This document shows, one piece after another, positions 4,417 to 20,275 of a DNA stretch of 64,000 nucleotides (positions are counted from its first letter, which is position 1; every line of letters begins with the position of its first letter). The notes below the pieces were generated by a model, which ran no database searches, was not told where the DNA came from, and worked only from the letters and a program-made list of their open reading frames with translations. Source of the DNA: a virus (Duplodnaviria > Caudoviricetes); the IMG/VR virus record IMGVR_UViG_3300021400_000130, positions 1 through 64,000 of that record, one strand, 5' to 3'. Both the position numbers and the translations under genes were made by a program.

Positions 4417-4491
4417 AGGCCCGTAGTGTAAATGGCAACACAACAGACTTTGACTCTGTCGTAGTAGGTTCAAATCCTGCCGGGCCTGCCA
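4417..4491 (+). tRNA. tRNA-Gln(TTG)
   Basis: AGGCCCG/CGGGCCT acceptor, ACAGA-CTTTGAC-TCTGT, GTTCAAATC, CCA. Confidence 0.92.
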
Positions 4492-4616
4492 CTTACTGAG
4501 TCTCAAAGGTTTGAGGGGAGACAGTAAACTAATCCTTTCACAACAAAGTGATAGAAACCCTCCTCCTTTTCTTAAAAAATAAGATTGTATATAATAGATA
4601 GGAAATACACACACAG

Positions 4617-4856
4617 ATGAATGAAGTTGTTTGGGTATCAAAAAACAGGCATGTAATAATTGCAGAAACAAACCCTATTTTTTCATACCAGGATAAAACA
4701 TATTCAATATACAGAGAAAATTGGGACTACGGAAAATTTAATTCTACAGAGTTCTACAGTATAACATGGTTCTTTGAAAGATGGGAAGATACTTTAGAAG
4801 AAGCTATTAGATATGCAAATTTCATTCCGGACGAAGTATATAAAACTAATGTATGA
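4617..4856 (+). CDS. Hypothetical protein
   Basis: 79 aa ORF with AGGA SD. Confidence 0.55.
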   Translation: MNEVVWVSKNRHVIIAETNPIFSYQDKTYSIYRENWDYGKFNSTEFYSITWFFERWEDTLEEAIRYANFIPDEVYKTNV

Positions 4857-5092
4857 ATAATTGTATTATAATTTTAATATGTTGGGTAGTTTTTTCAGTT
4901 ATACTTGTTGTCTGTGATAAATCTGGAGAAATTAGTTTTGAACATGATTTAGTATTTGCTATACTAACTGCCCCGATATCTATTCCTTTACTTTTAGTGC
5001 TAATTCCAGTTGCCTTTATAGTAAAGTTTTTTAATAAATATAAGAATAAGATTCACATTGATTTTCCAAGAAGACGCAGAAGGCGTTTTTAA
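4853..5092 (+). CDS. Small membrane protein
   Basis: Two hydrophobic segments and a basic C-terminus; ATGA overlap with the previous ORF. Confidence 0.55.
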   Translation: MNNCIIILICWVVFSVILVVCDKSGEISFEHDLVFAILTAPISIPLLLVLIPVAFIVKFFNKYKNKIHIDFPRRRRRRF

Positions 5093-5097
5093 TAAAT

Positions 5098-5172
5098 GCT
5101 CCTATAGTATAAAGGTTATTACAAGGCACTTGTAATGCTTAGATCTCCGTTCGACTCGGAGTAGGAGCTCCA
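5098..5172 (+). tRNA. tRNA-Thr(TGT)
   Basis: GCTCCTA/TAGGAGC, AGGCA-CTTGTAA-TGCTT, GTTCGACTC, CCA. Confidence 0.92.
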
Positions 5173-5175
5173 CTT

Positions 5176-5251
5176 GCGGATGTAGCTCAATTGGTAGAGT
5201 GTCGCCCTTCCAAGGCGAATGTTGCGAGTTCAAGCCTCGTCATCCGCTCCA
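5176..5251 (+). tRNA. tRNA-Gly(TCC)
   Basis: GCGGATG/CATCCGC, loop CTTCCAA, CCA. Confidence 0.95.
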
Positions 5252-5254
5252 CAT

Positions 5255-5332
5255 GGCCCCTTCGACTAGTAGGTCTAGGTCACAAGATTTTCAATCTTGT
5301 AACGGCGGGTTCAAATCCCCCAGGGGTCACCA
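5255..5332 (+). tRNA. tRNA-Glu(TTC)
   Basis: GGCCCCT/AGGGGTC, CAAGA-TTTTCAA-TCTTG, CCA. Confidence 0.92.
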
Positions 5333-5457
5333 CAATATAGTTACGAATAGTCCAAGACAGATAAGTTAGTATCTTGAAACGAGAGGGTAAACTGCTTATC
5401 CAAACCAACGCCTGATAAGTGAAAAGCTGGACAGGGGGTAGTAACTATATTATATAT

Positions 5458-5543
5458 GGGCAGGTAACCCAGCGGCGAAGGTAGCGGACTGTAAATCCGT
5501 GACAATAGAAACATCGGTGGTTCGAGTCCACCCCTGCCCACCA
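5458..5543 (+). tRNA. tRNA-Tyr(GTA)
   Basis: GGGCAGG/CCTGCCC, loop CTGTAAA, long variable arm, CCA. Confidence 0.95.
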
Positions 5544-5551
5544 TAAAATAT

Positions 5552-5628
5552 GCCCCCGTAGCTCAGCTGAATAGAGCATGCGCCTTCTAAGCGCAGGGTC
5601 GCTGGTTTGAATCCAGCCGGGGGTGCCA
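5552..5628 (+). tRNA. tRNA-Arg(TCT)
   Basis: GCCCCCG/CGGGGGT, TGCGC-CTTCTAA-GCGCA, CCA. Confidence 0.93.
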
Positions 5629-5816
5629 CCTGTATATCAGGGTAGGTAAGAGATACGCCTACTCCGGAGAAGGTATCTAAGGGAACTCGGATACAGAGGT
5701 TAAGCCCATAATGCGGTGACGAATAAAACTATTCCGCAGAGTGTGATATATCCTCAACGGTAAGGAGAGTTAAGCACACGGGTGTTCTAGACGCCTTTCC
5801 TTACGCCAATTTATCT

Positions 5817-5904
5817 GCCGCTAGGCCCGGACGGTAAGGGGTCCGATTGCTAATCGGAAGCCAGGTGAAAGTCTGAGAAGGTTCGACTCCTTCTAGTGGC
5901 GCCA
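5817..5904 (+). tRNA. tRNA-Ser(GCT)
   Basis: GCCGCTA/TAGTGGC, TCCGA-TTGCTAA-TCGGA, long variable arm, G73, CCA. Confidence 0.9.
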
Positions 5905-5920
5905 ATTAGATATAATGTAT

Positions 5921-5996
5921 GCGGGTATAGCTCAGTTGGAAGAGCAAGCGACTTTTAATCGAGAGGTCGGCGGTTCGAATCCGCCTACCCGCACCA
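5921..5996 (+). tRNA. tRNA-Lys(TTT), with two mismatches at the top of the anticodon stem
   Basis: GCGGGTA/TACCCGC, AGCGA-CTTTTAA-TCGAG, CCA. Confidence 0.9.
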
Positions 5997-6070
5997 GCTG
6001 CACGAAAGTGCTTGCAAACTATAAAGAACTAATAGTTGATTTTTATTTGTTCTTATATTATAATTTACAT

Positions 6071-6179
6071 GTAGAATAAGGAAGTACCTTAACTGGTAAG
6101 GTTGCCTGTTCGAGTCAGTGAAGTTACAAACGTAACTAAGTGGATAACCAGTAGTTCAACTCTACACTTCCCATTCTAC
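6071..6179 (+). ncRNA. Degenerate tRNA-Ser(CGA)-like RNA with extended terminal stem
   Basis: GTAGAAT/ATTCTAC and GGAAGT/ACTTCC stems, D-arm CCTT-AACTGGT-AAGG, CTG-TTCGAGT-CAG, T-like arm GTAG-TTCAACT-CTAC; directly after the promoter at 6036. Confidence 0.5.
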
Positions 6180-6216
6180 CTCTGAAAAGTGAATATGGAA
6201 GAAAGGAAGATGTCTC

Positions 6217-6342
6217 ATGTCTAAGTTTTGGAAGAACTTAGAAAGAGCTCTTACCCTATATGCGCTCGGTATGAACCCGGTAACTATGCGCTATATGAGT
6301 ACTGATGAGGTTAGAGCTCTCTTGTATGACGATAAGGAGTAA
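6217..6342 (+). CDS. Small 41-aa hypothetical protein (MSKFWKNLERALTLYALGMNP...), below the ORF-track cutoff
   Basis: SD GAAAGGA at 6201-6207, ATG 6217, TAA 6340-6342. Confidence 0.55.
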   Translation: MSKFWKNLERALTLYALGMNPVTMRYMSTDEVRALLYDDKE

Positions 6343-6402
6343 TTCACTTCTTATCGTAGTTGATGAGATATACTTCTAGGTATTTAAAAATTTAAGAAAT
6401 AT

Positions 6403-6477
6403 GGCCCCGTAGCTCAGAGGAAGAGCACGCGCCTGTTAAGCGCGATGTCGAGATATCGTAATTCTCCGGAGCCTCCA
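6403..6477 (+). tRNA. tRNA-Asn(GTT), atypical T-loop
   Basis: CGCGC-CTGTTAA-GCGCG, T-loop ATCGTAA, CCA. Confidence 0.85.
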
Positions 6478-7264
6478 GTCCCTTGGGAGTAGGGAGGGTT
6501 GATAAACTCCATCGTAACGCGAAATGCCAGAATGTCGCGGCTAATGTCGGGAGCAAAACCGATGAGGAAGATTTCCGCCTCGCAGGAGTGCAAAAGGTGA
6601 CGGAGACACGACACGCAACGAAATAGTGGTCGTCGTTTGTTAAATGGAAAACGTTAATATTCCATTACTGAGTTACCAGTCCAGGTAAGGTCAACTCAAC
6701 CAACTGGTTATTTTAAGTATCCATATTAGACGGTCTAATGTAATTGTGCGCGTTCGGTTCGATTCCAGCGGTGTCCGAGTTCGACTCTTGGGCGCGCCTG
6801 GTGGCAATATCAATTACTACTTAAAAATGTTTATCGCCAATCCTTCCGATAACTGCGACAAGGAAGGTGAAGAAGAATCGCAGTTCTTCTAATAAGTGAG
6901 CAACGACTTACGGAGAGCGCCGGACACCTCGCCCGTTGAGGAGGGAAATATTGGGTGAATGTCACTATTCCCAATTACCAGAACATAAGGGCATATGGAA
7001 TGGTATATGTGACGGTATTAGGCTTGAAATCCTAACGAGACATCGTGAAGAGTTCCGTTCTTGTGGTTGATGCTTTACCACTTGTCGAATAGTAGTAGCA
7101 TACAAAGAGGAATGCTGTTAGACGTGAGGGGATGCCCGAAGTAGACGAAACAGTATGTGTACAGCCTCCGAGAAGTTGGGCACGAGACTTCTAATATAAT
7201 AAACTATCTTATATACCATGTTGTATATAAGACCAAAGTGAAAGTATAACTTCCCTTTCTTTAT

Positions 7265-7340
7265 GCGATCTTAGCTCAGTTGGTAGAGCAGCGGATCGAT
7301 AATCCGAAGATCGTAGGTTCAAATCCTGCAGATCGCACCA
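7265..7340 (+). tRNA. tRNA-Ile(GAT), with C33
   Basis: GCGATCT/AGATCGC, GCGGA-TCGATAA-TCCGA, GTTCAAATC, CCA. Confidence 0.88.
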
Positions 7341-7508
7341 GGAGCCGTTACGAACAAAATTTCATAGGACTATTAAACAAGTAGGAGTAATTAACCTAAA
7401 CTATTTAATAACACCGTGATTGCCGATTGGGTCAGAGATTATTTGAGTTGCAACTTGTCAAATAATCGTAATCGGATGTGTAGTTGGCTGACTTCAAAGC
7501 CACCATAT

Positions 7509-7592
7509 GCCGATGTGGTGGAATGGTAGACACGCTAGTCTTAGGAACTAGTGCCACATGGCGTGCAGGTTCAAGTCCTGTCATCGGTACCA
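7509..7592 (+). tRNA. tRNA-Leu(TAG)
   Basis: GCCGATG/CATCGGT, loop CTTAGGA, variable arm, CCA. Confidence 0.95.
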
Positions 7593-7769
7593 AACAGGCT
7601 AAGCTGTATAATAAAGGACGCGAGTGGTTTCCTGCGGTGCCTTCTTAGCAAAAACGGGGAGAGAGACGGTTTGGTCCCATGAATAAACATGGAGTAGAGT
7701 AACACCAAATAACTTAGTAGACATATCGCATAGGAGCTCGTGAGGTATGCCGAAGTTACTCAATTATAT

Positions 7770-7856
7770 GCCGAAATGGCGGAATTGGTAGACGGAGAGG
7801 TCTCAAAAACCTCTGCCATAAACGGCGTGTGGGTTCAAGTCCCACTTTCGGCACCA
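7770..7856 (+). tRNA. tRNA-Leu(CAA)
   Basis: GCCGAAA/TTTCGGC, loop CTCAAAA, variable arm, CCA. Confidence 0.95.
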
Positions 7857-7982
7857 GAGAAGCGAGAGAATCTAATGAGTTAGTATTACGTACTACGGCT
7901 CAAAATTGGAGAAACAGATTTGCAATAATATCTCGTAAGGCACTTCTCACCACATTAAATTTAAGGAGGTACTGAAAGGGTA

Positions 7983-9764
7983 GTGAAAAAGTTAATCAAA
8001 GTATTTGTTGAAATTCTACTTCTTGCCTTGTGTTTTACAATTTTTGCCCCTTTAACTTTTGCTGATGTTGATGTACCAGAAATTCCTAATACAGAAGGTA
8101 TGAATGTAGACGATGCAAATGCCTTGATTGAGAAGTATAATAGTGAAGTAGACAATTATAACTCTCAAGTTCAGGAAGAGTATGAGGATCAACTTGCTCA
8201 AACCACACTTCATAATAAAGAAGAAGATCAGAAGGTCGCTGAGAATGCAGAAGAGATTGCCTCAGCTGAACAACAGAATGCTGAGATTCTTGCAGATTAT
8301 GAAGCGGCTAAAGCGGAAGCTGATGCAGTAAATGCACAAGAAGATGAGAAGGTAGAAGAGAGTCAGAAAGCTATAGAAGAAGCTAATGCTAAAAATGAGG
8401 AACTTTCTCAACAGATTGATGCAGCAGAACAGCACAATGCTGAAGAGGATCAGAAAGTTGAAAACTCACAGGCAGAACTAGCAATCATAGAGGATAAGAT
8501 TGAAGGCGACGCTGATGTTGTTGAGCACCATACAGAAGATGCGGCAGACGCTCCTACTGATTGGTCTGACACTACTCAAGATGCCAAAACAATCTCTGTT
8601 ATTTCGTCAGAAACTCCTACAGGAGATAAGATTTCTGTTATTAATATTCACACTTATATAGATGGCGATTCTATTAGTGGTAATCTGTATGAGAGTATAG
8701 ATAATGATACTTTCAAGCTTTCTCCAGAGCTACTAAAAGATGCAGTTCTTGTTGAATGGGAAACAGTAGAAATTGATGTTGATGACACTGTAGTAATAGA
8801 GAGTGAAGCTAGTTTATTTACCGATAACACAATCAGACACGAAGGAAAAAATTATAGACTTCAATCTTACTATTCTTATTTCATTAGAAATATAGAAGGA
8901 TATACTCAAGGCTATTGGCTTGCGAGTGGAATGGTTGCTATGACAGCAACAGATGTAGAATATGGTTGGGGATATGATTTTTCCACTGGCGAAGGTAAAG
9001 CTGGGGACACCTACACAATTCACTATGGAGAAACTGTAAGAAATGTTAACTATCTAGAAGATGGAGTATTAAAGACAGAACAGGTTACCGTTAGAACAAC
9101 AGATGGTGACGCTCCTAAAAATATTTTTGCTTTATTTGTATACACCTTTACTAGGTTGTGGGAAGAGCCAGTAGAATATACTCCAGAGTATGTTGAAGTA
9201 CCTACACTAGTTGATGTTCCTGAAGCATATGTACCACAGTATGTTAGTGTTGATCCTCCTACATATGTAACTGTTCCTGAAGTATATCAGCCTAATTATC
9301 TTGAAGCTCCAGATGAGCCGGTTCTTCTTACTAAGTTGGATTATCTAGCTCCAGTTGTCAATCCAGTTCCTACAGTCACACCAGCTCCCGTAGTTGAAAT
9401 TGTAGAGTCTGAAGATCTTCCTGAGGAAGAAGAAGTAAAGAATATAGAACCCGACGTTGAAATCTACGATGACCCAGAGGTTCCTCTTGCGGATATATCT
9501 CAGTCTCCGGCTTGGGCATTGATTAACTTAATTATTCTTGTTTTAACTATTTTAAGTTTAATCAAACTTGGAGATAGAGGCTATACTGTCTTTAGTCCTA
9601 TTTCTGTTATTAGTTCTTTAGTTCTATTCATACTCACTGAGAATGTATATAATCCAATGATAATGGTAGACAGATGGACAGTATGGATGATTGTTATTTT
9701 TGTAATTGCTATTCTATCAAGAGTATTTGCAAAGAAAGATAAGAAAGAATCCCTAGTAGAATAA
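7983..9764 (+). CDS. Secreted/membrane-anchored acidic surface protein
   Basis: N-terminal signal peptide, acidic coiled coil, Pro/Val/Glu repeats, EIYDDPEVPLA motif, C-terminal TM helices. Confidence 0.75.
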   Translation: MKKLIKVFVEILLLALCFTIFAPLTFADVDVPEIPNTEGMNVDDANALIEKYNSEVDNYNSQVQEEYEDQLAQTTLHNKEEDQKVAENAEEIASAEQQNAEILADYEAAKAEADAVNAQEDEKVEESQKAIEEANAKNEELSQQIDAAEQHNAEEDQKVENSQAELAIIEDKIEGDADVVEHHTEDAADAPTDWSDTTQDAKTISVISSETPTGDKISVINIHTYIDGDSISGNLYESIDNDTFKLSPELLKDAVLVEWETVEIDVDDTVVIESEASLFTDNTIRHEGKNYRLQSYYSYFIRNIEGYTQGYWLASGMVAMTATDVEYGWGYDFSTGEGKAGDTYTIHYGETVRNVNYLEDGVLKTEQVTVRTTDGDAPKNIFALFVYTFTRLWEEPVEYTPEYVEVPTLVDVPEAYVPQYVSVDPPTYVTVPEVYQPNYLEAPDEPVLLTKLDYLAPVVNPVPTVTPAPVVEIVESEDLPEEEEVKNIEPDVEIYDDPEVPLADISQSPAWALINLIILVLTILSLIKLGDRGYTVFSPISVISSLVLFILTENVYNPMIMVDRWTVWMIVIFVIAILSRVFAKKDKKESLVE

Positions 9765-9807
9765 ACTATAATGCAGTTGGCAGTCTGCATAATTACTGCC
9801 ACTATAT

Positions 9808-9885
9808 AGTTCCGTAGTGAAGTTGGTGTATCACGCCTGCCTGTCACGCAGGAGATCGCGGGTTCGAGCCCCGTCGGGACTGCCA
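9808..9885 (+). tRNA. tRNA-Asp(GTC)
   Basis: AGTTCCG/CGGGACT, CCTGC-CTGTCAC-GCAGG, CCA. Confidence 0.95.
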
Positions 9886-10177
9886 GCCAGTTGTAAGTTA
9901 TCTGTAAAACTTTCTAACTCCATTCTGAGTTATAAGTTACGAACACATGAAGTTACGAACATGAGTCAGTTGGTTTTGAAATCCTCCTGTGATTGGATGG
10001 AGAGTACCCGCCATGGAAAAACACAACTTAAAGTGGTACGAAGTGGGTTAGCGTACACAAGGTTGATTACATACCTAAAAGTAGGAGTACTGATGACTTA
10101 TTGTACTTAATATTCAGGGTTACAAATCCTACAAAGTAATCCGAAGAGGACAACTGCGTTAACAAAGTGTCATTTAT

Positions 10178-10253
10178 GGGCCTGTAGCTCAGCTGGGAGA
10201 GCGCCTCGTTTGCACCGAGGAGGTAGCGGGTTCGAGTCCTGTCAGGTCCACCA
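10178..10253 (+). tRNA. tRNA-Ala(TGC)
   Basis: GGGCCTG/CAGGTCC with G3:U70, loop TTTGCAC, CCA. Confidence 0.95.
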
Positions 10254-10439
10254 AGAAACTTATTGGTATGGATTTTATGTGTTTGTTCCGCCAATAAGAA
10301 AAAAACACTTTACGCTTAGGAAAAGGTTCAAATGTTCCTAGCAAATAAACAATAGAAATCTCGCATAGTGAAAGCGTTCTAATAAGATTTCAGCGTATAA
10401 TTCAGAAACAACCTTTCTTACTAATTAAGTAAAATATCT

Positions 10440-10512
10440 GGGTAGGTAGCACTATGGAGTGCGGGACAAAGTCCACCGCGGGAAGTTGGTTCGATTCCAA
10501 CCCTATCCACCA
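10440..10512 (+). ncRNA. Anticodon-less tRNA-like RNA with Ala identity elements (G3:U70, A73, CCA)
   Basis: GGGTAGG/CCTATCC-A-CCA, D-arm GCAC-TATGGA-GTGC, GGAC-AAA-GTCC in place of the anticodon arm, T-arm GTTGG-TTCGATT-CCAAC. Confidence 0.75.
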
Positions 10513-10637
10513 GTGTGCGTAGCTTTGAGATCGTGCACAACAACGAAAAATCCTTCTGCCAAAGGTATTGCTACACAACTTTGGGGGTACGCGTTAACAA
10601 ATAAACGTAACTAGTAGAAATATTAGTTACAAAATAT

Positions 10638-10710
10638 TGCGGGGAGAATGAGTATTCACTCTGGCCTCATAAGCCAGATTCCGTGGGTGCGACTCCCACC
10701 CCCGCAACCA
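10638..10710 (+). tRNA. tRNA-Met(CAT), initiator-like acceptor, reduced D-arm
   Basis: TGCGGGG/CCCCGCA-A-CCA, CTGGC-CTCATAA-GCCAG, T-loop TGCGACT. Confidence 0.85.
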
Positions 10711-10875
10711 AGTAGCCCAACCGCGAGAACCTGTGGAGAATCACCCGAAGGTTTGCTTGCGGGAAGATACCTTGCAGTGGCGCCTGCGCCGTTTGTTAGT
10801 CAGGGTTGAGAATGTGATCGCGACACGAAGCAGAATTGCAAGGGCTTGTCTGCTCTACAATATAAGGAATAGTAT

Positions 10876-11439
10876 ATGATTAAAGGTTTGTATAAGTGTT
10901 TTGAGCACTGGCATAAAGAGGGCACTGTTTGGTTATATAGTGATCCTCATTTTAATGATGATAAAGATCTTCTTATTCCTTTTCCAAATAGACCTTCTGC
11001 TGAAGATCAGATTAAAATGATTAATAGTAAAGTTGGTCGAAATGACCACCTTATCATTCTTGGGGACATAGGCGATATTGAATGTGCTAAGAAATTGAGA
11101 GGACACAAAGTTCTGATTAAAGGCAATCACGATTTTGGTTTGTCAAACTATGAGGGCATCTTTGAAGAAGTATATGGTGGTCCTCTTATGATAAGTGAGT
11201 CAATTATACTTTCTCATGAACCTTTAGATATAAACTGGGCGTTTAATATTCATGGACACACTCATCTTCTAAGTAAAGTAAGACCAGGTCATTTATGCGT
11301 TTGTAGTGATGTTTTAAACTATACCCCCGTTAATTTCAATCAGTTTGTTAAATCTGGCAGATTGAAGGAGATAAGACCTCTACATAGATCAACAATTGAT
11401 GAGGCAACTAAAAGGAAACAGAAAAGAAACAAGATTTAG
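10876..11439 (+). CDS. Calcineurin-like metallophosphoesterase
   Basis: SDPHF, LGDIG, KGNHD, SHEP and IHGHTH motifs. Confidence 0.9.
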   Translation: MIKGLYKCFEHWHKEGTVWLYSDPHFNDDKDLLIPFPNRPSAEDQIKMINSKVGRNDHLIILGDIGDIECAKKLRGHKVLIKGNHDFGLSNYEGIFEEVYGGPLMISESIILSHEPLDINWAFNIHGHTHLLSKVRPGHLCVCSDVLNYTPVNFNQFVKSGRLKEIRPLHRSTIDEATKRKQKRNKI

Positions 11440-11466
11440 TTGAATATAATGTCTGTTTACTATATA

Positions 11467-11610
11467 ATGTTATATGTAAAACAATTTGACTGGCTTGAGA
11501 ATTCAAATACTGTAACAGACAAATTTTATTTTCATATTCATTCAATGAATCCTGTAGGCGTTCAGAATATGCGGAATATTATTAAGCATAATGGATGGAA
11601 GGAACTATAA
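11467..11610 (+). pseudogene. C-terminal remnant of a cyclic-phosphate-processing receiver-like domain protein
   Basis: Frame reads ...DWLE...FHIHSMNPVGVQNMRNIIKHNGWKEL*; the N-terminal part is absent and the ATG overlaps the -10 box. Confidence 0.5.
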
Positions 11611-11611
11611 C

Positions 11612-11878
11612 ATGAAAACATATAATGAAAATTCTATGTTTGCTTACATCTATGGTAATCCTCATCAAACTAATATTCGTTATATTTCTAATGATAAGCT
11701 ACTTCTACAAGAGATGGCAATGGATGATTATTTTGAATTTATGTATGAACATTGGTTTGTAGACTCATATTCTAATATTCATAATATACCTTGGATTGAC
11801 CCGAAAATGTATTGGGATTGTTATGGTAACCAATCGAAACTTTATAATGTAATAGACATTTCTGATATATATATTTAA
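11612..11878 (+). CDS. Hypothetical protein
   Basis: ATG after SD GGAAGGA. Confidence 0.55.
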   Translation: MKTYNENSMFAYIYGNPHQTNIRYISNDKLLLQEMAMDDYFEFMYEHWFVDSYSNIHNIPWIDPKMYWDCYGNQSKLYNVIDISDIYI

Positions 11879-11895
11879 AAGAAGGTTGATTTAGC

Positions 11896-12216
11896 ATGAA
11901 AATGTATGACAAGAAGTCCACTAATGTAGTTGAAGCTGTCGATTTCTATTCTGACGGTACTGTTCTTGTTTATGACCCAAATCTTGGTGCTAAACAGAAT
12001 GGTAACGGTTGGGTTACTGTAAAGCGTAATCGTCTTATCCCTGCTGATTATGCTGAAATGTTTATTAGTGGTATGAGTAAGACTGAAAAGAATAAAATTA
12101 AACAACGGCTTACTCTTGTCAGTGCTTCGTGGGAAACCACAGACGGTAAAGTATTTGATCATCTTGACAACGCTGTTGAGCACGAAAAGGAATTGATAGA
12201 ATCTGAAAACAGTTGA
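11896..12216 (+). CDS. Hypothetical protein
   Basis: 106 aa ORF with AAGG SD. Confidence 0.7.
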   Translation: MKMYDKKSTNVVEAVDFYSDGTVLVYDPNLGAKQNGNGWVTVKRNRLIPADYAEMFISGMSKTEKNKIKQRLTLVSASWETTDGKVFDHLDNAVEHEKELIESENS

Positions 12217-12226
12217 TTTCTAATAC

Positions 12227-12317
12227 AAAGACGCATACAGCAATATATTTAATGGTTAAAATTTTAGACTGTCAATCTGAAGTGATACGGTTCAAATCCG
12301 TAAAATACGCGTCTTGT
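12227..12317 (+). ncRNA. YACAGCAA-stem RNA, copy 2, containing D, anticodon (GTC, Asp) and T arms
   Basis: AAGACGC/GCGTCTT terminal stem, ATACAGCAA, ATTT-AATGGTTA-AAAT, TTAGA-CTGTCAA-TCTGA, TACGG-TTCAAAT-CCGTA; no acceptor stem and no CCA. Confidence 0.8.
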
Positions 12318-12375
12318 TAATAATAGTTGATTTTAACATATTAGTTATATATAATATTCTATGTTAAATAAATAT

Positions 12376-12465
12376 GCGTCCTTAACCCGAGCGGCCTTGG
12401 GACCTGTCTTGAAAACAGTGTGTACCTGATGAGGGTATGGGGATCGACACCTCAGGGGCGCGCCA
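12376..12465 (+). tRNA. tRNA-Ser(TGA), atypical D/T loops
   Basis: GCGTCCT/GGGGCGC-G-CCA, CTGT-CTTGAAA-ACAG, variable arm, T-loop ATCGACA. Confidence 0.8.
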
Positions 12466-12478
12466 TTTAATAGATAAT

Positions 12479-12521
12479 AAAACACTCACAGCATATATAA
12501 AAGGACATAAAAAGTGTTTTG
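12479..12521 (+). promoter_or_regulatory. YACAGCA-stem element, copy 3, in the 5' leader of the Ro60-like gene
   Basis: AAAACACT-CACAGCA...AGTGTTTT-G, ending at SD GAAAGGA, 15 nt before ATG 12536. Confidence 0.65.
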
Positions 12522-12535
12522 AAAGGAAAGATAAT

Positions 12536-14059
12536 ATGAACTTTATTCATGAGATGAAAAAAACCAATGATATGAACACTCTTGTTTATACTGAAAATGG
12601 AGCTCTTGGGCATAAGAGTACGGGTAAGTATCTCCTTGACCTCAACTTCTCGGTCGCCTCTTTGCGTAGTATGAAGCCCGCAGAGATTTTTGAGAAGTTT
12701 GAAAATGCTTTCATCGAAGATCCTCGTTTGGCAATGCGTTGGCTCTTCTTCGCTCGCGATGTTAGAGGCGGTCTTGGTGAGCGTAGACTCTTCCGCATCT
12801 GCATGATGAACCTTGCTTCTAGTAATCCGGGCATGGTCAAAGCTCTTGTTACTATGATCCCTGAATACGGACGTTGGGATGATCTGTGGAGTCTTCTCGG
12901 AATTAACAAGGAAGTTGACGAAGAAATCTTTTCAGTTACTAACGATCAGCTCGTTTGTGATCTGAAAAGCTGTGACGTAGGAGAGCCTATCTCTCTTCTT
13001 GCAAAATGGCTTCCGTCCATCAATACTTCATCTAAGGAAACTCGTAACTTAGCTCACAAGTTTGTTAAGAAGTTTGATCTGACGGAGAGGGCATACCGTA
13101 TTATGCTGAGTAAGCTTCGTAAGTATCTTAAAGTTACGGAAACTCAGATGTCTAGCGGCAACTGGGACAAGATTAAGTACGAGTCTGTTCCTTCTCGTGC
13201 CAATCTTCTTTACAAAGATGCTTTCATGCGTCATGATTCAGTTCGTAGAACTAAGTATCTAGAAGATCTGAAAAATGGTACTACCAAGATTAATGCTTCT
13301 ACTCTGTTTCCTCATGACATTGTTCATATGTGTCGTAAGGATGATGAGTCAGTGGAGCAGCTGTGGAAGAATCTTCCTGATTTTGTAAAAGGAGATTCCA
13401 ATACGATTGTTGTTGCCGATGGTAGCGGCTCAATGAATTGCCCTGTCGGTTCTTCTAACATTACAGCTTGGGAAGTTGCTCATGCTCTTGCTATTTACTT
13501 TGCAGAGCGTTGCTCCGGACCTTATAAAGATAAGTATATCACCTTCTCCGCGAGACCTCAGTTTGTTAATCTTAACGGAGGCACTCTATACAATAGTCTT
13601 TATATTGCTCGTAGACATAGTGAGTGCAGTAACACTAACATTGAAGCTGTATTTGATCTCATCTTGAATACAGCTATCAGAACTAATGCAAAACAGAGCG
13701 ATATTCCTAACAATATTTTAATTGTTAGCGATATGGAGTTTGATGATGCTACTTATGGTTATTCTTGGGGACCTGATAAGTTCGACAGACCTTCGGAGAC
13801 TCTCTTTGAAACCATTCGTCGTAGGTGGGAGAACGCTGGGTACAAACTTCCTCGGCTTGTTTTCTGGAATGTAAATTCTCGTACGGGCTCTATTCCTGTC
13901 ACTGAAAATGAGCTTGGCGTTGCTCTTGTTAGTGGATTCTCTCCTGCAGTTTGCAAGATTGTCCTTAGCGGTAAGCTTGATCCTTACGGTGCTCTTGTTG
14001 ATGCCCTTATGGATATGAGATATGATCCTATTGAGGAAACAATCGAGAGATTTATCTGA
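12536..14059 (+). CDS. DUF2828-type Ro60/TROVE-like protein with C-terminal vWA domain
   Basis: TENGA..STG..LDL.F N-terminus, RDVRGGLGER, YGRWDDL, AKWLPS, vWA MIDAS DGSGSM, SDMEFD, FWNV, SGFSP. True start is 12536 after the SD; the track start lies inside tRNA-Ser. Confidence 0.85.
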   Translation: MNFIHEMKKTNDMNTLVYTENGALGHKSTGKYLLDLNFSVASLRSMKPAEIFEKFENAFIEDPRLAMRWLFFARDVRGGLGERRLFRICMMNLASSNPGMVKALVTMIPEYGRWDDLWSLLGINKEVDEEIFSVTNDQLVCDLKSCDVGEPISLLAKWLPSINTSSKETRNLAHKFVKKFDLTERAYRIMLSKLRKYLKVTETQMSSGNWDKIKYESVPSRANLLYKDAFMRHDSVRRTKYLEDLKNGTTKINASTLFPHDIVHMCRKDDESVEQLWKNLPDFVKGDSNTIVVADGSGSMNCPVGSSNITAWEVAHALAIYFAERCSGPYKDKYITFSARPQFVNLNGGTLYNSLYIARRHSECSNTNIEAVFDLILNTAIRTNAKQSDIPNNILIVSDMEFDDATYGYSWGPDKFDRPSETLFETIRRRWENAGYKLPRLVFWNVNSRTGSIPVTENELGVALVSGFSPAVCKIVLSGKLDPYGALVDALMDMRYDPIEETIERFI

Positions 14060-14097
14060 TTTCTAATAGGGAGTACATTTTAACTACTCCCTTATAT

Positions 14098-14173
14098 CCG
14101 GGCGTAACCCAGCTGGTAGGGTGCGTGGTTTGGGACCACGAGGCCGGGGGTTCAAATCCCTCCGCCCGGACCA
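14098..14173 (+). tRNA. tRNA-Pro(TGG)
   Basis: CCGGGCG/CGCCCGG, CGTGG-TTTGGGA-CCACG, CCA. Confidence 0.95.
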
Positions 14174-14174
14174 T

Positions 14175-14241
14175 AAAGACGGTTACAGCAAACTTAACTG
14201 GAATAGACTTTTAATCTATAATACCAAACCTCCCGTCTTGT
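14175..14241 (+). ncRNA. YACAGCAA-stem RNA, copy 4, with a perfect tRNA-Lys(TTT) anticodon stem-loop
   Basis: AAGACGG/CCGTCTT stem, TTACAGCAA, ATAGA-CTTTTAA-TCTAT (14203-14219). Confidence 0.78.
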
Positions 14242-14294
14242 TTTAGTTGATTTTTTGATTTATTATATTATAATAAATATGTAGAATAAAATAT

Positions 14295-14446
14295 GCCTTG
14301 GCAGCTCAGATGGTTTGAGCTCCCGACTTCAAGAGATAGCTTAACAGGAAAGCAGCGTAGCTTTAGAAACGAAGATGTAAGTGCAATTCTTACTCTCTTG
14401 GCCAATAATCGGGTGATCGTTGGTTCGAGTCCAACCCAAGGCACCA
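14295..14446 (+). tRNA. Interrupted tRNA, probably Ile(TAT), with a 75-nt insert in the anticodon
   Basis: GCCTTGG/CCAAGGC-A-CCA, normal D and T arms, CCCGA-CTT[insert 14330-14404]ATAA-TCGGG; 77 nt without the insert. Confidence 0.8.
14330..14404 (+). ncRNA. Nested tRNA-like RNA (CCA-ended, loop CTTTAGA) inside the outer anticodon
   Basis: CAAGAGA/TCTCTTG-G-CCA, TA-GCTT-AACAGGA-AAGC, T-arm GTAAG-TGCAATT-CTTAC, imperfect anticodon arm. Confidence 0.75.
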
Positions 14447-14715
14447 TATAGACATTGTAAGGATTGAAAGGTGTCAGCAATTGCAAGTTGCTATCCAGTT
14501 AATTAATAAGTGTATGCGGTTCACAACCGACTCACGTACCAGTAGTTAATCTTGCATAATACATACTGGTGGGAGTGAGCACAATTCAAACACTCGAAGG
14601 GTAGATAGGGGTAGGAGCTGTAATAGTGGTACAGCGAATGGCACACAGCGACCGATTAAATACTTAGGTCATTCCACTGGTGTGCGTGTAGAGTGCGAAT
14701 TGTGAATTAGAAAGG

Positions 14716-14964
14716 ATGTCACAGATGTACAGAATTACTTTCATAAGATTAGGAAATCATTATTACTGCACGGGATATCTTGGAAAGAACCCTGACAGAG
14801 GATTTTTTACAAAAGAGTTCCAAACTATCGAAGAAGCTGTTAAGTTCTGTGATAAACTTCCTGTTGAAGTTTACATTAAATCCTTAGATAACTTTACAAA
14901 GAAGGAAAGAATAGTTTTCAATAGAAAAAGACTTAGTGTCTGGAGACACAAGAATTCATTTTAA
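14716..14964 (+). CDS. Hypothetical protein
   Basis: 82 aa ORF near SD GAAAGG. Confidence 0.5.
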   Translation: MSQMYRITFIRLGNHYYCTGYLGKNPDRGFFTKEFQTIEEAVKFCDKLPVEVYIKSLDNFTKKERIVFNRKRLSVWRHKNSF

Positions 14965-14968
14965 ATTT

Positions 14969-15038
14969 AAAGGCTCATACAGCAATTCTTTTTTATAATG
15001 CTGACTGTTCATCTGCTAACTATAAAAACGAGCCTTGT
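14969..15038 (+). ncRNA. YACAGCAA-stem RNA, copy 5, with an Asn(GTT)-like anticodon arm
   Basis: AAGGCTC/GAGCCTT stem, ATACAGCAA, GCTGA-CTGTTCA-TCTGC. Confidence 0.75.
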
Positions 15039-15052
15039 ACTTATGTTATTGT

Positions 15053-15125
15053 AAGACCCATACAGCAACTTATCTATTATATAATTATTGTAAATTATTG
15101 AATTAGATCGGAAATCGGGTCTTGT
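15053..15125 (+). ncRNA. YACAGCAA-stem RNA, copy 6, with a possible Tyr(GTA)-like loop
   Basis: AAGACCC/GGGTCTT stem, ATACAGCAA, TAATTA-TTGTAAA-TTATTG. Confidence 0.72.
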
Positions 15126-15139
15126 TTTTTAAAGTTAAT

Positions 15140-15282
15140 AAAGACGCACACTGCAAATATTTTTATAATATTTGAAAGTTTTTGTACACCCTAAACTCTA
15201 TACATCGGAAATAGTTAGATGGTAAGTAAGTTGAGTGTTCCGTTGTGGAGTATAAATTAAAGAACTAAGTCCTGCGTCTTGT
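15140..15282 (+). ncRNA. YACAGCAA-stem RNA, copy 7 (long variant, CACTGCAA)
   Basis: AAGACGCA/TGCGTCTT-G stem followed by CACTGCAA. Confidence 0.65.
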
Positions 15283-15289
15283 TTTATAT

Positions 15290-15377
15290 GCTGGTGTGGT
15301 GGAATAGGTAGACACAGCGGACTTAAAATCCGCTGGCCTTAAAAGCCGTGTCGGTTCGAGTCCGACCACCAGCACCA
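15290..15377 (+). tRNA. tRNA-Leu(TAA)
   Basis: GCTGGTG/CACCAGC, GCGGA-CTTAAAA-TCCGC, CCA. Confidence 0.95.
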
Positions 15378-15544
15378 CTATTATTAGAGTCGAGCAAAAG
15401 TCACAAGTGATGTTGGCCTAAAAAGGGTAACCGCGGCCTACTGAAACGTATGTCAGAGGAGATTTAGAAATTAAATACGAGTGATAGTATTTAGGACTCT
15501 TGTGTACTTCCGGTCTTGCTCGACCGGGCTCTAATAGTAGACCA
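15378..15544 (+). ncRNA. Long-stemmed structured RNA ending in ACCA
   Basis: CTATTATTAGAGT/GCTCTAATAGTAG, GTCGAGCAA/TTGCTCGAC and CACAAG/CTTGTG stems. Confidence 0.55.
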
Positions 15545-15648
15545 TTGGAGAAAGTCCTGCATAGAGGCGGCAACATAAAACTGTGTCAGGTCAGTTTTGA
15601 ATAAGGCGGTCTATATGGCTACCTTATGTTTTTTAACTGACACAGTAT

Positions 15649-15725
15649 GCGGGCGTAGCTCAGCTGGTTAGAGCACCTGCCTTACAAGCAGGGGGTCGAT
15701 GGTTCGAGCCCGTCCGTCCGCACCA
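15649..15725 (+). tRNA. tRNA-Val(TAC)
   Basis: GCGGGCG/CGTCCGC, CCTGC-CTTACAA-GCAGG, CCA. Confidence 0.95.
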
Positions 15726-17615: not shown

Positions 17616-17915
17616 GTGTTGTTAATGTTCTTGCATATTGTTGCAGTAATTCATCTTGTAATTTTTATCATAGATTTTGTACTTGCATCACTCATTTCTC
17701 TAATTGTCAAGTCAAGATTGAGCAGAGAGTACGGAAAACTCAATATAGAAGAAAGTTCTATTTCTGAAAAGATTCTCGTTTATCTTAGATTTACTGTTTA
17801 CGCACTTCTTCCTATTACCAATGTTGCTATGTGTTATGGTATGCTCTTTAAAACAGATGAAATTGTTTCGACAAGTATAAATAAGATTATTCAGAAATCA
17901 GATATAAACAGATGA
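17616..17915 (+). CDS. Membrane protein
   Basis: Hydrophobic segments, SD GAGGAGG. Confidence 0.6.
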   Translation: MLLMFLHIVAVIHLVIFIIDFVLASLISLIVKSRLSREYGKLNIEESSISEKILVYLRFTVYALLPITNVAMCYGMLFKTDEIVSTSINKIIQKSDINR

Positions 17916-19318: not shown

Positions 19319-20275
19319 ATGCCTGCTAATGTTGAGTCCCTTTTCTACACCTCCAATGAACAGAATGGAAGATTTGTCCCCTGGCACGGTCTTGGTACTC
19401 CGGTTCAGGAAGCATTGACCAGCGAGGAAGCTATTGAGAAGGCCGGCCTGAACTGGACGGTCGAGAAGAAACCGATCTACAATGAGAATGGTAAGGAGAT
19501 CCCGAAGTACTTCCGTACTGCTCGTAGCTCTGATAACAGCACTCTCGGTATTGTATCTGGTCGGTACAAGATCGTTCAGAACTCTGAAGCGTTCAGCTTT
19601 ACTGACGGTCTCATCGGTGAAGATGTCCGATATGAAACTGCTGGTAGTCTTAACGAAGGTCGTAGAGTTTGGCTTCTTGCTAAACTTCCTGAGAAGATGA
19701 TCCTCGGCGATAAGTTCGACACTTATGTCTGTTTCACTAACACTCATGACGGAACGGGTTCTGTTCAGGTATGCCTGACTCCGACTCGAGTAGTGTGCAG
19801 CAACACTCTTAACCTTGCACTTAGCGAGGCTAGCAGAAAGTGGTCTACTCGTCACATCGGTAATCTTGAGCAGAAGATGGAAGAGGCTCGTAGGGCTCTT
19901 GAGTTGGCGGATGCTTACATGGAAGCCCTGAACAGCAAGGCTCAGGTCCTGTCGGATGTCAAGGTTTCTGATGCAGAAGTTGAGGTCATGTTTGACTCCA
20001 TCTTCCCTGTGAACACTGAAAAGGATACTGCTCGTAAGATCAAGAATGTTGAGTATCTGAAGAATGCTTTCTTCAAGTGCATGCAGGCTCCTGACATCGC
20101 TCAGTTCTCTGGAACTGCCTGGGGCGTGATTAACGCGATGACGGACTTCGCTGATCACACTGCTCCTATTCGTCTTACCGACAGCTATCAGGAAAACAAC
20201 TGGGGAAAGATTATCGGCGGTCACCCTGCAGTGGATGCTATGTATTCTCTGCTGACCGCCAAGGTCGCCGCCTAA
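19319..20275 (+). CDS. DUF932 / phage-plasmid TIGR03299-like protein
   Basis: VPWHGLG, AGLNWTV, YETAGSL..G..VW.LA, HDG.GS, TPTRVVCSNTL, WGVINA. Confidence 0.9.
   Translation: MPANVESLFYTSNEQNGRFVPWHGLGTPVQEALTSEEAIEKAGLNWTVEKKPIYNENGKEIPKYFRTARSSDNSTLGIVSGRYKIVQNSEAFSFTDGLIGEDVRYETAGSLNEGRRVWLLAKLPEKMILGDKFDTYVCFTNTHDGTGSVQVCLTPTRVVCSNTLNLALSEASRKWSTRHIGNLEQKMEEARRALELADAYMEALNSKAQVLSDVKVSDAEVEVMFDSIFPVNTEKDTARKIKNVEYLKNAFFKCMQAPDIAQFSGTAWGVINAMTDFADHTAPIRLTDSYQENNWGKIIGGHPAVDAMYSLLTAKVAA

Follow-up and report, generated by a model that had tools for sequence, protein, structure and literature searches.

An anticodon-less tRNA-Ala-like gene in the tRNA array of a rumen phage

The tRNA array and the anticodon-less element

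The DNA considered here (the window) is a stretch of 64,000 nucleotides, positions 1 to 64,000 of the virus record IMGVR_UViG_3300021400_000130 (Duplodnaviria; Caudoviricetes), and it represents the first 64 kb of a complete phage genome of 153,613 bp with 107-bp terminal repeats and 36.6% G+C. Contigs identical or near-identical to this phage come from sheep-rumen assemblies. An array at 4.4-15.7 kb contains 18 tRNAs called by ARAGORN, all with an encoded CCA, and several tRNA-like oddities and a few genes are scattered through it. Among the oddities is a 73-nt gene on the plus strand (10440-10512, including its encoded CCA) that resembles tRNA-Ala and has no anticodon; we refer to it below as the element. 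The genes of the array encode NrdD/NrdG, a 593-aa unknown protein, a metallophosphoesterase, a DUF2828/DUF7788 protein (an 'RNA-binding protein' in PHROGs) and a dUTPase, and the gene neighbours of the element are the phosphoesterase, the DUF2828 RNA-binding protein and unknowns.

The acceptor stem of the element pairs GGGTAGG (10440-10446) with CCTATCC (10502-10508) and includes G1-C72, G2-C71, G3·U70, in which G3 faces the T at 10506, and U4-A69. U8-A9 directly follow the 5′ strand, and the D arm, GCAC(T)-ATGG-(A)GTGC (10449-10462), has a stem of 4-5 bp and a GG in its loop TATGGA. A single G then leads to a stub hairpin, GGAC-AAA-GTCC (10464-10474), with a 4-bp stem and a 3-nt loop. This hairpin and a 10-nt unpaired linker, ACCGCGGGAA (10475-10484), which holds the palindrome CCGCGG, occupy the place of the anticodon arm and variable loop. 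The T arm, GTTGG-TTCGATT-CCAAC (10485-10501), has a perfect stem and a consensus T loop, and the gene ends with the discriminator A73 and the genomically encoded CCA (10509-10512). All of these features lie on the plus strand. The minimum-energy and centroid folds computed by ViennaRNA for 10440-10512 are both this cloverleaf, at -25.0 kcal/mol and with 20/20 standard pairs. The z-score of the fold energy is just -1.23, which is not unusual for the composition, and the energy by itself is therefore not evidence.

Stronger evidence comes from the Rfam tRNA model (RF00005), which gives the element 38.6 bits against a gathering threshold of 29 (E 8e-7 local, 8e-8 genome-wide), in a local alignment that covers all of the model except the anticodon arm and skips 17 model positions. 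A 7-bp acceptor stem, discriminator, CCA, D arm, T arm and gathering-level score are all present, and what is missing from a tRNA is the 5-bp anticodon stem with its 7-nt loop containing U33, an anticodon and R37. ARAGORN does not call the element in the window or in the whole genome, and a default-filter Rfam run over the whole window did not report it. Three further assemblies, made independently, contain the identical sequence, which rules out an artefact of assembly. A consensus scan found no sigma-70-type promoter and no terminator flanking it. Several other readings of the segment were discarded. An alternative pairing of G22-G25 with C37-C40 (11-nt loop) competes with the D stem and is broken by a G24-to-U change in the related contig L027 described below; pairing of the linker CCGCGG elsewhere in the genome is unsupported, the few other CCGCGG sites being scattered; and a small protein encoded in the region is not credible.

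The bacterial alanine identity set comprises A73, G2-C71, G3·U70, G4-C69 and G20, and the corresponding table gives no anticodon determinant for alanine (PMC9976931). The element carries A73, G2-C71 and G3·U70; judged by these bases it keeps the main determinants of alanyl-tRNA synthetase (AlaRS), and the host AlaRS can probably charge it. It cannot decode, because no anticodon can be displayed by a loop of 3 nt closed by a 4-bp stem. An initial annotation, made from the sequence alone, had described the segment as a chargeable, non-decoding RNA with this structure, and both the absence of decoding and every detail of the structure are borne out by the sequence and the minimum-energy cloverleaf. 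The same annotation had noted a normal tRNA-Ala of different sequence upstream, and this is present as a canonical, decoding tRNA-Ala(UGC) on the plus strand (10178-10253; called by ARAGORN, 62.1 bits with Rfam), 186 nt away and with a match in L027 at 17759-17834. The alanine identity, which had been called full, was overstated: three determinants are in place and two, G4-C69 and G20, are missing, as discussed below.

An orthologue in a second lineage and the flanking modules

Relatives were gathered by anchoring on the neighbouring phosphoesterase gene, which yielded 6 viral and 45 metagenomic loci. One of them, the 27.7-kb rumen contig L027, has an orthologue of the element at 19512-19584 that is 66/73 identical (90.4%) and has the same stub hairpin and an invariant linker. 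The seven differences fall in the D loop (two, AT to GG), at one junction base, in the T loop (one), in the stub hairpin (one) and in the T stem (two). In the stub hairpin, which reads GGAU-AAA-GUCC in L027, the closing C-G becomes U·G and pairing is kept; in the T stem, G49A and C59U are compensatory and turn G-C into A-U. All seven pairs of the acceptor stem are invariant between window and L027, G3·U70 and G2-C71 included, as is A73. If seven changes are placed as random substitutions, the probability that all 20 pairs stay intact is P = 0.016-0.05. L027 was also examined for a local sequence that could have donated a gene-conversion patch, and none was found.

The two genomes otherwise diverge considerably. 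The phosphoesterase gene is 72.6% identical at the nucleotide level, the other shared tRNAs are 73-83% identical, and most intergenic spacers cannot be aligned. The canonical tRNA-Ala is 89.5% identical, with loop changes and two compensatory anticodon-stem pairs. Because the identity of the element matches that of the canonical tRNA-Ala while the genomes otherwise diverge, the element appears to be conserved as a constrained bona fide tRNA is (90.4% vs 89.5%). As to decay of the kind expected in a pseudogene (broken helices, lost loop bases, no constraint among orthologues), all helices are intact and 7/7 differences preserve structure, but the comparison covers two lineages only, between which the module may have been exchanged recently.

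The element travels with its upstream spacer (10254-10439, plus strand), the first 164 nt of which (10254-10417) are 97% identical to L027 19236-19399. The spacer ends in the leader AAAATATCT, which is close to the WTAT leader of the real tRNAs of the phage, and the bases directly 5′ of the element are TATCT in the window and TATAT in L027. The spacer matches no Rfam family and has no credible open reading frame. Spacer and element form a module bounded exactly by CCA ends, the upstream neighbour of which is tRNA-Ala in the window and tRNA-Phe in L027; the presence of the same module in two contexts with exact CCA borders shows that units of 'leader plus tRNA' undergo modular shuffling. Across the array (4417-15725), WTAT occurs directly 5′ of nearly every tRNA that does not abut its neighbour (e.g. 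tatat or ttat before the initial G), and this conserved leader, or cleavage context, is common to the relatives L005, L020 and L027. Within the spacer, the identity of 10254-10417 to L027 is far above the genome average; among its several hairpins, one includes a T-loop-like GGTTCAAAT, and L027 has conserved the TATAAT that stands at 10397-10402. The region could serve as a promoter or in regulation, or could itself encode an RNA.

Directly downstream of the element lies a 77-nt non-coding module (10513-10589, plus strand), 88-92% identical to L020 4394-4469 and to sequences in L005/L006/L023. It thus stands 3′ of three different Ala-type genes, namely the element in the window, a normal tRNA-Ala(UGC) in L020 (4320-4393), and a 79-nt tRNA-Ala(UGC) with a 7-bp D hairpin in L005/L006/L023; in L027 it does not follow the element, and a different downstream module is found there. 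The 77-nt module opens with a hairpin in which the changes are wobble-compatible, and it matches no Rfam family. The tRNA-Ala(UGC) genes at this slot in L020 and L005/L006/L023 are not sequence orthologues of the element. Because these relatives at the slot have normal 7-nt loops, the short arm is a derived state, and because the element is only 3 nt below normal tRNA length, the change is not a simple deletion. In the model alignment the linker corresponds to ACCGAGgaGG of the canonical tRNA-Ala, and CAC-CGCGG seems to preserve the 3′ side of the loop and stem of an Ala-type anticodon arm. We infer that the 5′ half of the anticodon arm was replaced by unrelated bases, which together with the next C form the new hairpin. 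Normal loops in relatives had been named at the outset as the sign of a recent private deletion. That suspicion is half confirmed: tRNA-Ala(UGC) genes with 7-nt loops do occupy the downstream-module slot in L020 and L005/L006/L023, but the altered arm is not private, as the L027 orthologue has the same short arm and differs only by changes that preserve pairs or lie in loops.

Further copies were sought in several ways. A blastn search of 10300-10640 against cultured phages gave no match, and exact-pattern scans found the core of the element in neither IMG/VR nor GTDB genomes, no copy of the spacer, and nothing beyond L005/L006 for a longer downstream motif. On contigs that share the phosphoesterase of the window the element is identical, so that these add no variation, and those with the phosphoesterase of L027 contain no further orthologue. 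The neighbouring 593-aa protein has no relatives in IMG/VR; contigs encoding relatives of 90-92% identity stop short of the element's position. The gene that lies downstream of the L027 copy has relatives too, but these stand next to other genes and no orthologue lies beside them. A look-alike string in L114, GAAGTCCAGCGCGGGA, was rejected since it lies in GC-rich coding DNA without any tRNA features.

Possible function and rival explanations

We favour, with a probability of roughly 0.55, the reading of the element as a tRNA-Ala derivative that does not decode but is maintained, that AlaRS probably charges and that acts through its acceptor/T-arm half. It would be transcribed inside the tRNA array, and RNase P would cut its 5′ leader, a step suggested by the match of TATAT and TATCT to the WTAT that precedes nearly all tRNAs of the array. 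The RNA would fold to an L shape of near-normal dimensions through contacts between the GG and the T loop, and the host AlaRS would load it with alanine, since this enzyme reads only the acceptor helix. Because the element cannot decode, any selected function would lie in the acceptor, T-arm and elbow half. We think it most likely to act as a stable ligand or competitor, aimed at a host factor whose recognition is confined to the upper half of a tRNA, with a tRNA-end-directed immune nuclease or toxin, SmpB, EF-Tu and AlaRS as candidate targets; an alanine-delivering carrier is less likely. Any single target deserves much less confidence than the functional, non-decoding reading itself. Recent work indicates that bacterial immunity includes enzymes reading only the acceptor/T-arm half of tRNA, and a Schlafen nuclease that cleaves within the anticodon arm can act preferentially on a phage tRNA-Ala(UGC) (PMC13056530).

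A number of observations weigh against this reading, and most of them suit a young tRNA-Ala pseudogene, that is, a redundant copy in which the 5′ half of the anticodon arm was rearranged, which has not yet decayed and which is shared through a fairly recent module exchange. The distribution is narrow, with two lineages. The complete relative G002 lacks the element, as does L120, a syntenic relative (63% identical by the 593-aa protein) that has tRNA-Asp, tRNA-Ala and then a protein gene; from these two absences it follows that the element is dispensable in this phage group. Both carriers also have an intact, normal tRNA-Ala(UGC), beside which a second copy would be redundant and liable to decay, and the normal anticodon loops of relatives at this slot mark the short arm as derived. 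Position 14 is U where the usual base is A. As to the minor alanine elements, position 4:69 is U-A and G20 is not evident in the loop TATGGA, although the canonical tRNA-Ala of the window has C4-G69, so that G4-C69 is not conserved in this system. The 97% identity of the adjacent spacer suggests that the module may have been exchanged recently, leaving less time for decay. The conservation statistics rest on 7 substitutions and two lineages only, and P weakens to roughly 0.1 if the three T-arm or two D-loop changes are single events. In addition, the phage has no SmpB, Fem or MprF-type partner gene. On the other side, none of the seven substitutions since the arm change breaks a pair and one is a compensatory double (P 0.016-0.05), the divergence is as low as that of the functional tRNA-Ala while most of the surrounding non-coding DNA is unalignable, no damage is seen in the T loop, GG, CCA or tRNA-type leader, and the replacement arm is a clean hairpin that was kept through a C-to-U change. 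We regard a pseudogene, the main rival, as somewhat unlikely, and prefer a maintained gene.

The remaining explanations grant the RNA a role of another kind. Bacterial RNase P recognizes the acceptor/T minihelix, the elbow and CCA, and the tRNA-like mascRNA serves as a processing signal in MALAT1; the element keeps the minihelix, elbow and CCA together with a tRNA-type leader, and it sits between two conserved non-coding modules (the 186-nt spacer and the 77-nt module), so it could be a mere processing handle, a signal for RNase P and 3′-end formation that separates these modules and retains its alanine identity as an ancestral leftover. This is improbable, however, given that the real tRNAs filling the array would do equally well and a degenerate one is unneeded, that L027 has a different downstream module, and that G3·U70, G2-C71 and A73 are invariant, though selection on these bases cannot be demonstrated from two sequences. 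Alanine identity without an anticodon is also the hallmark of the tRNA-like domain (TLD) of transfer-messenger RNA (tmRNA), and a TLD-only gene in mycobacteriophage DS6A, thought to titrate SmpB, offers a precedent (PMC4131195) for a rescue RNA or SmpB partner, either as the acceptor piece of a split tmRNA or as a TLD-only inhibitor of trans-translation. The element, in contrast, lacks a helix-2 stub and possesses a genuine D stem. It goes unreported by the tmRNA model RF00023, which gives 20.5 bits to the normal tRNA-Ala and 43.2 bits to the DS6A gene, and the permuted-tmRNA model RF04321 gives the element 12.5 bits against a gathering threshold of 47. Since the tmRNA model ignores the element and scores DS6A, the element is, on model scores, a modified tRNA and not a tmRNA domain. 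Nor did ARAGORN, RF00023 or RF04321 find a separate tmRNA coding piece in the phage genome, for which a search had been proposed; ARAGORN calls no tmRNA in the 153.6 kb, the genome encodes no SmpB domain, and there is no plausible tag frame nearby. A tmRNA-like role is thus very improbable, though host-encoded partners such as SmpB are possible. Scarcely probable, finally, is an alanine carrier, excluded from translation, for a non-ribosomal transferase (Fem/MurM, alanyl-phosphatidylglycerol synthase or others). Such aminoacyl-tRNA-dependent enzymes read the acceptor end, and the element keeps the main alanine identity elements; yet there is no FemAB or LPG_synthase_C domain in the 153.6-kb genome, no neighbouring gene hints at such chemistry, and a benefit to a lytic phage is not evident. 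None of the specific roles put forward initially (alanine donor, SmpB partner, or decoy for EF-Tu, RelA or T-boxes) gained support from the analysis, and the phage genome is without SmpB, FemAB, MprF-type domains or a tmRNA coding piece.

More broadly, the element might be one of a recurrent, undescribed class of near-full-size, non-decoding phage tRNA-Ala derivatives, processed and alanylated as tRNAs are, that engage readers of the upper half of tRNA, a generalization that we consider rather unlikely. Members of such a class would blunt CCA-tail or acceptor-directed immune nucleases and toxins, or would disturb the addition of alanine without a template, by tmRNA-SmpB or in RqcH alanine tailing; with the acceptor-less, anticodon-arm-bearing Y-like RNAs of the same locus, they would make the tRNA island a 'half-tRNA' decoy set. 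No cloverleaf-type, anticodon-less tRNA-Ala derivative was found described in the literature searched. Phage tRNA genes are now viewed as counter-measures to tRNA-directed immunity, a discussion concerned with decoding tRNAs and altered anticodon loops. If the favoured reading of a maintained, non-decoding gene is true, phages exploit the non-decoding half of tRNA too, and the element would be a natural counterpart of the laboratory alanine minihelix. Such genes escape the standard tRNA finders, ARAGORN and default-filter Rfam. Even as a pseudogene, the element shows phage tRNA arrays being rebuilt from small CCA-bounded modules.

Related RNAs and other tRNA-like genes of the group

Among known RNAs, mascRNA is a tRNA-shaped RNA cut from MALAT1, with a reduced, non-decoding anticodon arm, that is recognised by tRNA processing enzymes; it differs from the element in being eukaryotic, not known to be aminoacylated, and a by-product of the 3′-end formation of a long RNA. 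YrlA and other Y RNAs are tRNA mimics bound by Ro60-type proteins, with ends closed into a long Ro-binding stem and no free CCA. As at Y RNA loci, the element is a tRNA mimic near an 'RNA-binding protein', the DUF2828 protein (phrog_850), which is a possible Ro60/TROVE relative, and further unusual tRNA-like modules share the locus; in contrast to a Y RNA, its ends form a 7-bp acceptor stem with an ACCA overhang, and Rfam reports no Y RNA family for the element or the window.

Mycobacteriophage DS6A carries a TLD-only, tag-less tmRNA gene, thought to titrate SmpB (PMC4131195; tmRNA Website 11587), which we located at L067 28478-28560 and which served as a positive control for the tmRNA model (43.2 bits). 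Like the element, it encodes a small phage RNA with a G3·U70 acceptor stem, a T arm and no anticodon. It differs in its stemless, tmRNA-type D loop, helix-2 stub, CUA end and match to the tmRNA model, whereas the element matches the tRNA model, has a real D stem, a stub hairpin with a 10-nt linker and an encoded CCA, and derives from tRNA-Ala. Minihelix-Ala and microhelix-Ala are synthetic AlaRS substrates (Francklyn and Schimmel 1989, as listed in PMC9976931) that likewise hold alanine identity in the acceptor helix (G3·U70, A73, G2-C71) without an anticodon; these are laboratory constructs with acceptor and T arm only, whereas the element is natural, of near full size, with a D arm and elbow, and a putative substrate. 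A further comparison is with the tRNA-Ala(UGC) genes of the window, L020, L005, L010 and the T5-like phage My1, which share with the element G1-C72, G2-C71, G3·U70, A73, CCA, the T loop and a location in a tRNA array, as well as, in L020 and L005/L006/L023, the 77-nt downstream module. They differ in their anticodon arm, which has a stem of 5 bp and a UGC-bearing loop of 7 nt and has no equivalent in the element.

Several further genes of the array are of interest in their own right. The metallophosphoesterase gene (10876-11439) encodes a calcineurin-type protein of 187 aa with the motifs GDxGD, GNHD and GHTH (phrog_547); it is 45-84% conserved among 50 related contigs, mostly close to tRNA arrays, and a role in the healing of RNA ends is conceivable. 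A tRNA-Met-like gene at 10638-10710 scores just 36.3 bits, and between it and the phosphoesterase gene lies a G+C-rich, non-coding segment (10711-10875) with no Rfam match and no similar sequence among the sampled relatives.

At 14294-14446 the window has a tRNA-shaped gene with the acceptor GCCTTGG/CCAAGGC-A-CCA, a D arm, the anticodon stem CCCGA/TCGGG and a T arm, in which the anticodon loop is interrupted by about 75 nt. The insert (14330-14401) itself scores 43 bits with the Rfam tRNA model, although its anticodon region is non-canonical. Both the outer gene and the insert escape ARAGORN, and L027 has a 73% identical counterpart at 13152-13313. Also in L027 (19648-19779), a tRNA-shaped sequence of about 130 nt, GGGTGAG...CTTACCC-A-CCA, was missed by ARAGORN; its anticodon arm is Leu(UAA)-like, and a long insert extends its D region.

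Recurrent modules at window positions 12228-12316 and 14176-14240, L010 2985-3075 and L027 19588-19640 have a 7-bp closing stem (e.g. AAGACGC/GCGTCTT) followed by YACAGCAA, and enclose incomplete arms of tRNA type (37.4 bits over positions 10-63 of the Rfam tRNA model). One of them lies directly upstream of the DUF2828/DUF7788 gene (12437-14059; phrog_850). These modules may represent a Y-RNA-like system, although none matches a Y RNA family in Rfam.

The 79-nt tRNA-Ala(UGC) is a widespread phage-type gene whose D hairpin has 7 bp (GACUGCU-NGG-AGUGGUC) and whose variable loop has 7 nt, found at L005 2264-2342, L010 2899-2977, L038 16740-16818 and L117 61-139 (Pectobacterium phage My1). Its 51 IMG/VR matches and 187 cultured-phage records, many of them T5-like, contain 37 distinct tRNA-shaped sequences, annotated as tRNA-Ala, as 'tRNA-OTHER', as a hypothetical protein or not at all. 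The D hairpin of My1 shows a compensatory change, and a few copies have GUC in place of UGC. Some relatives carry a tRNA with the anticodon CUA, an amber suppressor labelled 'Pyl' by ARAGORN (L010 11399-11469; L030 7548-7622; L123-L126), and some genes of these relatives translate only if TAG is read as Q, which indicates that part of this phage group recodes TAG.

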